From an uncultured Chlamydiae bacterium (GTDB lineage Bacteria; Chlamydiota; Chlamydiia; Chlamydiales; JAJFMA01), in the NCBI GenBank assembly GCA_963713615.1, contig CAVQMM010000001.1:2240001-2304000 (forward strand): DNA of 64,000 nucleotides. Direction: 5' to 3'. The notes beneath the pieces are model-generated. The model was not told the origin of the DNA. It did not search any database and saw nothing but the letters and a program-made list of their open reading frames with translations. Within the stretch, counting starts at the first letter, position 1. Every line of letters begins with the position of its first letter. Made by a program: the position numbers and the translations under genes. Below are positions 49,501-57,223 of the stretch, piece after piece.

Positions 49501-50157
49501 TTGAAGGGTATTGAATTGTTTCTACTTGCACATTTCGCCGCCTCCTACCTGCTTGTCGACCAGCTTACCATCGGACGTCGCGAGCTCAAAAATATGAACT
49601 GGAAAGACGAAGAATATGTGACCGAGCTTGGTAAACAACTCGCTGCCGGTTACACCAGCGCTGTAGCAGCCTTTACCAACCTACCTAAAGAGACTGTAAG
49701 GCCTTTTTCGGAAAAGGGTGGATTGAACTGGCCAAAGATGGCTCGTCAAATGTGCTTTTGGATGCGCAATGATGATACTGGCTATCTACCCCATGTCAAA
49801 AAACGAAGCATCCCTGAACGGATTTTTGAAGATGCATCATGTACTGTTGCATCTACGGATGACCTACGGGGTTGGAATCATGATCATGGGTTTATGCTAA
49901 ATCCACCACACCCAGACTCCGGTCCAGTGAATGGTCAGCATATGGTTAAAGAAGCGGAGCGCAGCTGGTATGTCACAGCTCTGTTCCTTGCTGTGATGAA
50001 GGATGCGCAACGCAAGGCGGAAAAATGGAAGACGCGTGCAGAGCAGTGTGACGAACCTCAGAAAAAGAAGCATTTTTTTAAGAAGTCGCTTCAGCATCAA
50101 CCTGGTCAAGCTGATTTAATAGCACAGCTGAATTTACTGCTGGGTATCAACTCTTAA
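46531..50157 (+). CDS. SidJ-related pseudokinase (candidate protein glutamylase) with N-terminal bilobed hydrophobic domain
   Basis: C-terminal ~430 aa: GRTLLF, AIKLQR...WRE, SYFCYLH, HDLFLLARHGIV..LADLFH, EERDDQGYY, GRL, YLNARASGLADLAD, YLLVDQLTIG, RQMCFWM, HPDSGPVN, collinear with Legionella SidJ motifs as I recall them. Confidence 0.85.
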   Translation: MEINSDPIHPTDRSTFTGRWSSSCIHKVAAYGCILAVAYVAAQIFEEDIAVSGGTFLFTTATMLTGYWLTKILVGHSQHSEQVGQSLNSRSENAERSDDLFRQSIALGLKQIPLSDPFQPLSAPVNLAKDRIVLEPVLLTDEQKQVLSVFGGMIHMATEYFDPALSNWKNGDAFRTDGDKQWDCKRANLARAICHPLIGQLREDPTDENIKAVDNFIQAVTCDTLKMYLHAHFANVLSIHGRKSEAAVACNNFVRLAKKQQRFRKHAEIYVLDRAQISKDICEGILALPDCAIQADIDALIDLVLNPPEPQGMDNMTLRIVQTTLFTLQHRGYKLSQVGTKCLENLYKSKVGPCYSSYLLAGQRQSAMLVLDLIGRLQNSHEHMLSIVDFVQAGSYFLYDAEVRERFLEVVFTNRLFVNSYLDVSGALAKNEPSRMDKERGRLILKSSKGCLPLSDVILDERTLQVHFFILKLLGNENIYSNSRNTSEFIKSFIANELRSQFSLDFTARLQHRLFQLRSGDEYRVLTPNILQDYSKDLPQPFVRRLEKLFPSEEIVGRYRQFEIIHWLLSHREDIDVHHSSKAISVLLEALNSRHIPTQLMLDILQVFSLEECNEYFKGLMEDDRSPLSAGLQGSCKLLSQAGFSPEVNVDFYLLAAMHTLFLSKNLLVQQLRLIPKKWLKSYFKSLFFHPELLKPILDSHFKLNWIDLADGGSAKATWSPLVNELLSTMGASNGVDGFEETSFAKAYQAAMTTPNEEPKSISFDQIIDGWTFDQVLGRTLLFRRDGQYRAIKLQRSDEAIDILWRELRLVQLLKSEIAPEGLLTKWPKPIHVYDVGDLPQEYQAQLKIEIALANGHVNAYVYEFCDRSYFCYLHHRSLDKIQFAQAREAMLHDLFLLARHGIVYTALADLFHNLEQMEERDDQGYYLPLVDLFRNLVSEGSGRLSGMWKAIKYLNARASGLADLADTDLIANIIQNLEESPFRLRKLKGLKGIELFLLAHFAASYLLVDQLTIGRRELKNMNWKDEEYVTELGKQLAAGYTSAVAAFTNLPKETVRPFSEKGGLNWPKMARQMCFWMRNDDTGYLPHVKKRSIPERIFEDASCTVASTDDLRGWNHDHGFMLNPPHPDSGPVNGQHMVKEAERSWYVTALFLAVMKDAQRKAEKWKTRAEQCDEPQKKKHFFKKSLQHQPGQADLIAQLNLLLGINS

Positions 50158-51112
50158 GCTCCAGAGCCCATTGTTGCGCGGCGGGTTGTCCGGTGAACGA
50201 TGACTTTATTGCTGGATCAACCTGGATACGCCAATCGTTTTCTTTATTAATATCAAACCAGATCAAAGCTTCGACACCCCATTCTTTGCATATGTGTATG
50301 GCTTTTTTCAACCACGCGTTTTTGGCAATCTCATCGCCCACAGAGGCGGTTTCAAACACAAATAGAGGTTTGGTTGGGGCTATGTCTCTAAGCTCCTTAA
50401 ATGCCTTGGAGAAGATCTCTTCAAAGCTCCGCCAATGGGACCAGGCGACACTGTCGCCCCAGTTATATCCATCCACTCCTAGGATATCTATGTAGTCATC
50501 CCCCGGATAGTAATGCTGCAGCACATTCCAATCGGGTGCATGAGGCACAGAGTCGGCATTTGGACAAAAGGCCCATAAAATATTGGTAGCGCCATGCTTC
50601 CGAAACAAATCTACCACGTAACGATACATCTGCACGTATCGACCAGGGGTGTGTTCTCCATACTCGTCTTCACTACCTGTCCAGTGGTACTCCCTCAAAT
50701 TCATTTCATGAGCGAATCGCAAAATGAGAGGTTTGCCCCATTTCTTTACTGCCAGAGCAAAGGATGCCAAATAGGAATCATAGCGCCCTGAGATGACCTC
50801 AGCTATTGTCACCGCCTCTGAGTGGCCATCTGTGATGTGCGTCGGCTCCCAGGTGACACATGGAAGCGCCCCATAATCCCAAATGGCTTTAACGCTATCT
50901 GCGTCAAAATCGGAAGTCCATTGCAGATAGATCCCAACAATTTGTGGGCGCATGCCTGTGGCGGATGCGTGGCGAAGTAAAATAGTTTGAGAGGCAGGGC
51001 CCTCTATGGCGGAGCCCCAAAATAATGGACGACTAGGCCCTCGGTGTAGCAAGGAGCATCCAACGCATACACTGACCAACAGCGTAAACATCAATGGTTT
51101 GAAATGCGTCAT
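50147..51112 (-). CDS. Glycoside hydrolase family 26, lipoprotein
   Basis: CVGC lipobox; TWEP, LRFAHEMN (acid/base), YYPGDDYIDILGVDGYN, VFETAS (nucleophile). Confidence 0.88.
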   Translation of the reverse strand: MTHFKPLMFTLLVSVCVGCSLLHRGPSRPLFWGSAIEGPASQTILLRHASATGMRPQIVGIYLQWTSDFDADSVKAIWDYGALPCVTWEPTHITDGHSEAVTIAEVISGRYDSYLASFALAVKKWGKPLILRFAHEMNLREYHWTGSEDEYGEHTPGRYVQMYRYVVDLFRKHGATNILWAFCPNADSVPHAPDWNVLQHYYPGDDYIDILGVDGYNWGDSVAWSHWRSFEEIFSKAFKELRDIAPTKPLFVFETASVGDEIAKNAWLKKAIHICKEWGVEALIWFDINKENDWRIQVDPAIKSSFTGQPAAQQWALELKS

Positions 51113-56352: not shown

Positions 56353-56353
56353 A

Positions 56354-57223
56354 CTACAAGCCCTCGATTGGTATAGTACGCGCCTGAATCTTGCGCTCTA
56401 GCCTCTCCTTAAGATCCTTCGATTGGGCTCTTAGATAATGGTCATAGATCAGTACGATCGTATTGTAATGCCAATAAAGCTTTTCCTCTAGCTCCTTGAT
56501 GGAAACGATATAAGGGACATGCTCTCCCGTCTTAAAGGCCAGATTCAACAAGTCCAGGTTCACCTCCGATATCACCAGCTGGTGGATCTCCTGAAAACTG
56601 TCAGGAATATGAAAAGCCCCACGAAGATCATCCAAATGCAGTCCAGCCTCGATAGCAGCCAATTTTTTAATTTTTTCGTTCAACGTGGCAAAGACATCCT
56701 CAAAGAAAATCTGACTTAACTGTGAATAGATCTCAGTGCTGAAGCCCGTTGTTCTGGAAAAATAGGCTGCGAGGTGTTTAAGGTACACACCTACCCCTTT
56801 CTTCAGTAAGACACACTCTTTAATGCTAGTTCGAAAAACCTTCTCAAGGTTTCCATTAGACTCAAATTGCGGTCTCTCGCCCTCCTTGATAGAAATCCAA
56901 ACCGGATATTCCTGGACGACTTCTTTGACAAATGCAAGCCGATAAATTCGCATCTTTTTATCTGGACTGCTGTCAACGGATTCTATAACCCCTCTCGTGA
57001 AAAACTGGCCCGCTCGGTATAAAGGGATATGTAAATTAACGAAGTCATATTCATTCAGAAGATAACACTGTGATAGCCATGAAGGACTAGCGAGCTCAAC
57101 CCCTTTCTCCCAAATGCGTAGTGGAAAATATTGGAACAACTCATAGTCTGGCTGGATTGTTCCGTATAACGGAAGCAGAGTAACCGAGCGCATGGGAGGT
57201 GATGAGACGGTGTTTGCTGTCAT
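56354..57223 (-). CDS. Hypothetical cytoplasmic protein leading the EPS operon (possibly degenerate PilZ-like N-terminus)
   Basis: GGGAGG RBS; beta-rich N-terminal half, helical C-terminal half; tightly coupled to the operon. Confidence 0.65.
   Translation of the reverse strand: MTANTVSSPPMRSVTLLPLYGTIQPDYELFQYFPLRIWEKGVELASPSWLSQCYLLNEYDFVNLHIPLYRAGQFFTRGVIESVDSSPDKKMRIYRLAFVKEVVQEYPVWISIKEGERPQFESNGNLEKVFRTSIKECVLLKKGVGVYLKHLAAYFSRTTGFSTEIYSQLSQIFFEDVFATLNEKIKKLAAIEAGLHLDDLRGAFHIPDSFQEIHQLVISEVNLDLLNLAFKTGEHVPYIVSIKELEEKLYWHYNTIVLIYDHYLRAQSKDLKERLERKIQARTIPIEGL

Follow-up and report, generated by a model that had tools for sequence, protein, structure and literature searches.

A chlamydial six-gene operon predicted to encode a BcsB-less polysaccharide exporter

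Gene content of the operon

The minus strand of a 64-kb window (the whole stretch of DNA analysed, 64,000 nucleotides of contig CAVQMM010000001.1 from an uncultured Chlamydiae bacterium) carries six genes at 50147-57223 that very probably encode an exporter of a long glycan. All six open reading frames (ORFs) are intact, and they are co-oriented and tightly spaced or overlapping, as a preliminary description of this DNA had stated. From 57223 towards 50147 the junctions are a 1-nt gap, a 14-nt overlap, a 4-nt overlap, a 15-nt gap and a 4-nt overlap. The genome comprises 3.97 Mb in 3 contigs and is 99.1% complete. The GC content of the operon (46.1%) is close to that of the chromosome (46.8%), suggesting long residence, and no close plasmid homologues were found (best about 29% identity). 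Promoter and terminator scans of the operon gave signals no better than chance; the first gene is preceded by a strong ribosome-binding site (GGGGAGG).

The first gene (56354-57223) encodes a stand-alone 289-aa protein, a predicted cytoplasmic synthase subunit with a PilZ-like barrel (residues 19-122) and a four-helix bundle (residues 126-262), in which the RxxxR and DxSxxG motifs are lost. The next gene (55933-56352) encodes a small tetratricopeptide repeat (TPR) protein of 139 aa with an N-terminal hydrophobic segment (residues 5-23), likely the inner-membrane-anchored start of a periplasmic TPR conduit. A second small TPR protein (55332-55946, 204 aa) has a signal-peptide-like N-terminus and is likely a periplasmic scaffold. 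The product of 52789-55335 (848 aa, ending in LSYRF) combines TPRs with a predicted C-terminal 16-stranded outer-membrane barrel resembling the export pores BcsC, PelB and PgaA. Profiles, motifs and hydropathy indicate that 51109-52773 encodes a processive membrane synthase/translocase of glycosyltransferase family 2 (GT2), 554 aa long, with a BcsA-like core. The last gene (50147-51112) encodes an exported 321-aa hydrolase of glycoside hydrolase family 26 (GH26; PF02156), of the CtLic26A (beta-1,3/1,4-glucanase) type, which has both catalytic Glu residues and is possibly a lipoprotein. Pfam and NCBIfam models match the hydrolase as GH26, the synthase as GT2 and the next three proteins as TPR families, with no match for the 289-aa protein.

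The synthase

The closest solved relative of the GT2 is Cereibacter BcsA (E 2e-33, about 28% identity). It scores 195.5 bits against the CelA model TIGR03030 (cut-off 699.1) and 70.6 bits against the PgaC model TIGR03937 (cut-off 422.3). The intact D, D, TED, QxxRW set that had been noted earlier was found again, as DD130-131, DAD210-212, TED301-303 and QQHRW339-343, together with the gating-loop motif FVVTPK469-474. D130, D131, D210, D212, T301, E302, D303, Q339, R342 and W343 are invariant in all 25 aligned homologues, and the BcsA donor and gate motifs HAKAG, QTPQ, TED, QxxRW and FxVTxK are kept. Hydropathy indicates about seven hydrophobic segments. The C-terminus has no PilZ domain. A Glu aligned with the BcsA latch residue (PET/PED, E331) is also invariant among the homologues. 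Such a Glu is common among processive GT2s and is therefore weak evidence when taken alone.

A second, unrelated membrane GT2 of 629 aa with TED and QRFRW motifs is encoded elsewhere in this genome (main-contig positions ~3541300-3543200; L149:4317-6206). No export genes adjoin it, and two genes upstream lies a gene for a mitochondrial-carrier-family protein (PF00153), which is unusual for bacteria.

A PilZ-type module in trans

The preliminary description listed the 289-aa product as an unknown cytoplasmic protein and saw no PilZ fused to the GT2. The GT2 does lack PilZ, and the 289-aa protein is now identified as a degenerate PilZ-like protein with a helical bundle, so that a PilZ-type module appears to be present in trans. 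Its model (predicted local distance difference test score, pLDDT, 87) shows the beta-barrel followed by the bundle. The family has 192 representatives at E <= 0.001, and Pfam PilZ is matched in 39 of 50 members, not including this copy. The barrel has weak PilZ fold matches (E 0.011; Z 8.2 over residues 4-122), and the Atlas lead for the whole protein is PilZ at 0.89; the bundle alone gives no Atlas lead. Fold matches of the bundle are generic four-helix ones, the top match being an iron-binding protein whose Z of 11.8 lies within helical-bundle noise. A test for a ferritin-like di-iron site found no ExxH pair; a single His is conserved (H150, within YLKH), as are several acidic residues. The protein has no hydrophobic segment, and its bundle stands where Alg44 has an HlyD-like domain. 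The available part of 10.1101/814665 shows no PilZ plus four-helix architecture.

Both RxxxR and DxSxxG are present in 40 of 44 non-chlamydial copies of this family. None of 13 chlamydial copies (from 12 genomes, related and hence not independent) has either motif. Profile searches of this genome found no match for GGDEF, EAL or Pfam PilZ.

The 289-aa protein is predicted to be a PilZ-type synthase subunit that docks on the GT2. The predicted complex scores 0.80 (runs 0.81, 0.70 and 0.80), and the best of three controls reaches 0.09; contact agreement between runs is at least 76% and the pLDDT of the partner at least 71. The mark used is reached by 116 of 157 solved complexes and by 2 of 215 mismatched pairs, counts that are rough for the alignments used here. 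In the model, bundle residues 135-160 and 238-248, the most conserved stretch, lie on the cytoplasmic GT domain and the barrel is uninvolved. Interface residues are more conserved than the rest of the bundle (0.73 vs 0.48), a comparison that is not independent of the model. Docking through the bundle, and not the barrel, would explain why chlamydiae have retained this protein after losing the ligand motifs.

TPR proteins and export barrel

The two small TPR proteins and the TPR-barrel protein ending in YRF were recognised in the preliminary description, and structure prediction now supports the barrel. The last 355 aa (75-row alignment) are modelled at a pLDDT of 94.8 with 16 long strands by count. 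In a fold search of 48,161 representative chains, this model is closest to BcsC (6tzk, Z 27.1, root-mean-square deviation 4.2, 329 residues aligned), PelB (9h80, Z 24.9) and PgaA (4y25, Z 24.4), which are likewise the top three in Foldseek. The first barrel unrelated to exopolysaccharide export has a Z of 15.6, and AlgE a Z of 11.7.

In four chlamydial loci (L135, L136, L140 and L142) the membrane-anchored TPR protein, the second TPR protein and the barrel are a single protein of 1127-1273 aa, which the profile of the first TPR protein matches from its start (E 4e-35 to 2e-22). These fusions support one uninterrupted conduit through the periplasm. In Pfam and NCBIfam no known co-polymerase family is matched by any of the six proteins, and the 139-aa membrane-anchored TPR protein is a candidate for the inner-membrane co-polymerase.

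The hydrolase and the likely polymer

The closest solved relative of the hydrolase is CtLic26A, the GH26 lichenase of Clostridium thermocellum CelH (PDB 2bv9), with both catalytic Glu aligned. A single-sequence search gave E 8e-41 for CtLic26A and 8.5e-10 or weaker for mannanases (33 PDB matches); with a 38-row family profile the values were 5e-53 vs 4e-11 for the best mannanase (38 PDB matches). All 38 family members have the catalytic residues E136 (HEMN) and E254, and the CtLic26A-like segments WEP, DGYNWG and WF-x3-KE-x2-WR are kept. The enzyme had been described as a lipoprotein with both Glu. The latter holds; the N-terminal hydrophobic segment has no more than a plausible lipobox, VCVGC (Cys19), with lipobox-like sequences in 11 of 38 family members, and a lipoprotein is thus possible.

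Hydrolases of synthase-dependent systems generally cut their own polymer, and a GH26 of this type is thus the main pointer to a mixed-linkage glucan (MLG). A periplasmic hydrolase belongs to the general layout of these systems (PMC8892547, available part), and CtLic26A is the beta-1,3/1,4-glucanase of the GH26 family (PMC10470212, available part). That the enzyme is far nearer to the lichenase than to mannanases favours a beta-glucan over mannan or xylan.

The genome encodes a 796-aa UGP3-like protein, a UDP-glucose pyrophosphorylase of the non-GalU type, and no GalU above cut-off. The UGP3-like type is reported to be the UDP-glucose source in other chlamydiae (PMC7935935, available part), and C. 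trachomatis imports host UDP-glucose into its inclusion (PMC4829429, available part). A NagU-like UDP-GlcNAc enzyme is the more likely identity of the second PF01704 protein of this genome (10.64898/2026.06.23.733835, available part).

Distribution of the operon

Scanning GTDB genomes for the GT2 yielded 224 relatives, and loci were counted for the best 80 of these, within neighbourhoods of at most 10 kb that are often cut by contig ends. Most of these loci come from Thermodesulfobacteriota; the others include Verrucomicrobiota, Thiocapsa, five chlamydial records and one bin of Brocadiaceae. Of the 80 loci, 78 contain the TPR-barrel family, 73 GH26, 69 the small TPR proteins and 49 the 289-aa family. 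The exact order tpr-tpr-barrel-GT2-GH26 occurs in 55 loci, many of the remainder being cut at contig ends, and this recurrence indicates that the arrangement is not due to chance. Regulatory neighbours include a STAS protein (51 loci), an RsbW-like ATPase (31) and a REC-SpoIIE phosphatase (27). These partner-switch genes are not at the present locus, though genes of this kind are found at other sites in the genome and lie next to several of the other chlamydial copies.

The preliminary description reported the system from a chlamydia. The operon does occur in Chlamydiota, where it is patchy; the synteny search adds what had been missed, that it is widespread in free-living anaerobes and not specific to chlamydiae. 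The GT2 is present in 18 of 400 scored Chlamydiota genomes (this one included), from 13 of 212 genera, and in one further carrier. None of the 29 scored genomes of a chlamydial family with 1.0-1.2 Mb genomes has it. The chlamydial loci vary and may be rearranged, lack GH26 or be broken. Their GT2s are deeply diverged from one another and have kept the motifs nonetheless.

A GT2 tree of 57 rows, made up of 20 chlamydial sequences and alternate members of the 74 others, groups this copy with G003, G006 and G240 (support 100/99), and places the copy of the same-genus genome G001 elsewhere. Holding the four same-family copies together is rejected (approximately unbiased test, p-AU 3e-13, for a group named after the tree was seen). 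A single clade of all 20 chlamydial rows is neither recovered nor rejected (p-AU 0.30). The outgroup branches are very long and no donor is therefore inferred from the rooted tree. The pattern may be read as old residence, movement among chlamydiae or hidden paralogy, and frequent loss.

Genomic surroundings

Just upstream of the operon, 57411-57620 is a 210-nt element that folds into a single long hairpin (-138 kcal/mol). It has about 235 related genomic loci at up to 93% identity (508 BLAST pieces) and by appearance is a repeat of the repetitive extragenic palindrome or miniature inverted-repeat transposable element type. On the other side, 46531-50157 on the plus strand is a 1208-aa ORF that converges on the operon and overlaps the end of the GH26 gene by 11 nt. 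Its C-terminal part has a sub-threshold match to SidJ-family effectors, which have a pseudokinase fold (NF033873, E 5e-28), and no such ORF adjoins the operon in four related loci checked.

Further away, 40582-45741 on the minus strand is a complete 16S-23S-5S rRNA operon. The region 33527-37612 is a tandem array of nine copies of a 472-474-nt unit that are about 99% identical (83% for the last copy), with overlapping ORFs of 181-184 aa that have no Pfam match; an IS66 element adjoins it at 37853-40060. A LigD-type ATP-dependent DNA ligase with a phosphoesterase domain (28066-29592, plus strand) suggests non-homologous end joining. Genome-wide there are 12 matches to the TLC family of nucleotide transporters (ATP/ADP translocases), in about 11 genes, a large expansion of a family characteristic of energy parasites; five of the genes are clustered at main-contig positions 2754372-2762575. 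These matches, and the chlamydial origin of the closest homologues of the GT2 and of the 289-aa protein, place the genome among chlamydiae.

Proposed mechanism and alternatives

The six genes may constitute one envelope-spanning, BcsB-less and c-di-GMP (cyclic di-GMP)-independent exporter of a beta-glucan, most likely one of mixed linkage (1,3 and 1,4), a reading to which we assign a probability of about 55%. That the polymer is a beta-glucan is probable in itself; mixed linkage is a more tentative part, a little short of even odds. The GT2, with its motifs in place, would polymerise UDP-glucose and pass the chain out through a transmembrane channel of its own. The four-helix bundle would dock on the cytoplasmic GT domain and replace the in-cis PilZ tail of BcsA. 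After motif loss the chlamydial protein may be a structural or constitutive activator, whereas free-living relatives keep both c-di-GMP motifs. The membrane-anchored TPR protein, the second TPR protein and the TPRs of the barrel would together take the place of BcsB as one periplasmic conduit, as the fusions suggest. The GH26 enzyme may trim or clear misrouted polymer, as BcsZ, AlgL, PelA and PgaB do. The polymer would leave through the barrel to reach the cell surface or the inclusion lumen, possibly as a coat or matrix; the elementary-body coat or adhesion polymer suggested in the preliminary description is a candidate role.

Several observations weigh against parts of this proposal. GGDEF is matched in 3 of the 19 chlamydial operon carriers, and two Opitutaceae with degenerate PilZ motifs have two GGDEF genes each, so motif loss is not strictly tied to cyclase loss. 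GGDEF matches occur in 146 of 401 Chlamydiota genomes, many of them full-length and strong (21 of 23 in family f30), and the phylum-wide statement that Chlamydiae lack c-di-GMP enzymes is rejected on these counts. The GT2 surface residues at the predicted interface are no less conserved in seven carriers without the partner. BcsA itself has a helix that follows its PilZ barrel and rests against the GT domain (PMC8892547, section 11), and the complex score may partly reflect likeness to that packing, a caveat tempered by the lack of a significant match between the 289-aa family profile and the BcsA C-terminus (probability 0.2%). The specificity of the hydrolase rests on a single characterised lichenase, which is a thin basis. 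The linkage is also unreadable from the GT2 sequence: a proven bacterial MLG synthase has a model that is reported to fit cellulose just as well (PMC10374906, available part). Finally, GH26 was not found in four of five chlamydial carriers tested (one of them 61% complete) and 7 of 19 carriers showed no member of the 289-aa family, so neither is obligatory, and in the single-contig genome G247 (L132, G247:C1 2064000-2082000) the GT2 has an internal stop and the barrel and TPR genes are fragmented, through either decay or assembly error.

This broken copy, the rearranged loci, the missing GH26 genes, the lost ligand motifs and the patchy occurrence would also fit a decaying or silent transfer relic, or a maker of short periplasmic or lipid-linked glucans. 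We consider this very unlikely. All six frames are intact here with every catalytic residue present, the GC content suggests long residence, and the diverged chlamydial GT2s keep their motifs. The full barrel is retained, which would be superfluous for short periplasmic glucans, and the MdoH models match the synthase only at E 3e-7. Another alternative concerns the polymer, which could be a beta-mannan, glucomannan or xylan. Mannanases make up the majority of characterised GH26 enzymes, with some xylanases among the rest (PMC10470212, available part), and this hydrolase does match mannanases, weakly. Those matches are some 40 orders of magnitude worse than that of CtLic26A, and no entry named as a xylanase is among the 33 and 38 PDB matches, although some are named simply "Glycoside hydrolase family 26". 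The GDP-mannose enzyme model TIGR01479 has no match in this genome, and the identified neighbour families include no nucleotide-sugar conversion gene except GalT-like (6 of 80 loci) and UDPGP-type (5 of 80) ones. A non-glucan product thus appears quite unlikely.

The operon could also be a stripped-down cellulose (beta-1,4-glucan) system, with a split BcsA, a TPR anchor for BcsB and a GH26 turned endoglucanase for BcsZ. Among solved and curated proteins, cellulose synthases are nearest to the GT2, BcsC is the closest barrel, and the Glu at the BcsA latch position is invariant. Known cellulose systems have GH8, GH5 or GH9 hydrolases, the GT2 is distant from BcsA in identity and from CelA in score, and the GH26 retains its CtLic26A-like segments, all of which make this reading unlikely. 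The non-cellulose beta-glycan of the preliminary description is accordingly narrowed: the hydrolase favours a beta-glucan, and although plain cellulose is compatible with the data, the product is likely not cellulose.

A more far-reaching possibility, which we regard as doubtful, is that a BcsB-less glucan exporter of this kind represents another class of synthase-dependent system that has not been described before. In it, a cellulose-synthase-like enzyme would be split, with a detached PilZ-four-helix subunit docking on the GT domain, a TPR chain would stand in for BcsB, and a BcsC-type barrel would export a mixed-linkage beta-glucan. Obligate intracellular chlamydiae would have acquired the operon, cut its c-di-GMP wiring and used it to build a plant- or fungus-like beta-glucan capsule or inclusion matrix. 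The operon would then be the first exopolysaccharide machine described in Chlamydiota, as far as our literature searches reach.

The number of known synthase-dependent secretion systems is small, and the polysaccharides that sulfate reducers and syntrophs put into their biofilms have been little defined. The operon offers a specific candidate that can be tested, and its free-living carriers include the cultured strains Desulfobacter vibrioformis DSM 8776 (L012) and Thiocapsa imhoffii DSM 21303 (L019). Its chlamydial copies are a natural experiment in which the docking bundle is kept and the ligand motifs are dropped, and they point to the way in which a PilZ module in trans would activate a synthase. 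A secreted beta-glucan on an intracellular symbiont, if confirmed, would bear on survival of the elementary body outside the host and on host recognition. As a separate matter, the GGDEF counts indicate that environmental chlamydiae may use c-di-GMP signalling more often than has been assumed.

Comparison with known systems

Literature searches, which left most subscription journals and supplements (where operon tables might stand) outside their scope, found no description of this operon in chlamydiae or Thermodesulfobacteriota and matched no characterised system. The available part of PMC4114195 has no mention of the operon type. A GH26 gene beside a GT2 gene in PMC13390465 (available part) belongs to a Wzx/Wzy cluster and was set aside as unrelated. 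Multicellular magnetotactic bacteria are reported to have scattered bcs-like genes and a cellulase-sensitive coat (PMC11239054, available part). New here are the occurrence in Chlamydiota, the loss of the PilZ motifs in chlamydial copies and the lack of GGDEF, EAL and BcsB matches in this genome.

The features of synthase-dependent secretion present at the locus are a processive synthase with intact catalytic motifs, a TPR scaffold with a predicted outer-membrane barrel and a GH26 periplasmic hydrolase. Missing from this copy is a c-di-GMP-sensing module, since the PilZ-like fold has lost both motifs. The operon resembles Bcs (BcsA-BcsB-BcsZ-BcsC) in its BcsA-like GT2 core and gating loop, its TPRs and BcsC-like barrel, its periplasmic hydrolase and its PilZ-type module. 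It differs in that the PilZ is on a separate protein, motif-less in this copy, and not at the C-terminus of a GT2 that falls far under the CelA cut-off, in having GH26 instead of the GH8 BcsZ, and in its two extra TPR proteins. No BcsB was evident in the preliminary description either, and PF03170 has no match in the 99%-complete genome.

The alginate system (Alg8 with Alg44, AlgK, AlgE and AlgL) shares a PilZ-less GT2, a c-di-GMP module on a partner and separate TPR protein(s). The partner here is a soluble PilZ and four-helix protein, however, without the transmembrane helix or HlyD-like part of Alg44. The barrel is of the BcsC/PgaA type and not like AlgE, the enzyme is a hydrolase and not a lyase, and the locus has no modification genes. 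Pel and Pga are alike in barrel fold (PelB and PgaA), and the membrane-anchored TPR protein recalls PelE. The synthase is BcsA-like, and not PelF (GT4) or PgaC, and none of the six proteins has a deacetylase domain in Pfam of the kind found in PgaB.

The bacterial MLG synthases, Sinorhizobium BgsBA and Romboutsia RiGT2, are BcsA-like GT2s without BcsB, and their polymer is likely of the same class as that of this operon. One of the loci (L126) shows a bgsBA-like layout, which consists of HlyD and GT2 without TPR-barrel or GH26; that GT2 falls outside the operon family in the tree, and none of the six operon proteins matches an HlyD/MFP family, the type of BgsB, in Pfam or NCBIfam. RiGT2 has a fused PilZ and a Gram-positive host and is set apart by description, not by sequence comparison; its activity is independent of c-di-GMP (PMC10374906, available part). 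MLG export through a TPR-barrel, if true, would differ from both of these described bacterial routes. The relative of the hydrolase also differs in setting: CtLic26A is a cellulosomal degradative module, whereas the present GH26 lies in a biosynthetic operon. The earlier view of a complete synthase-dependent layout distinct from Bcs, Pga, Pel and Alg is thus supported. On the features tested the operon appears to lie outside these four and Bgs while probably working like Bcs, and it is apparently an undescribed variant of synthase-dependent secretion.

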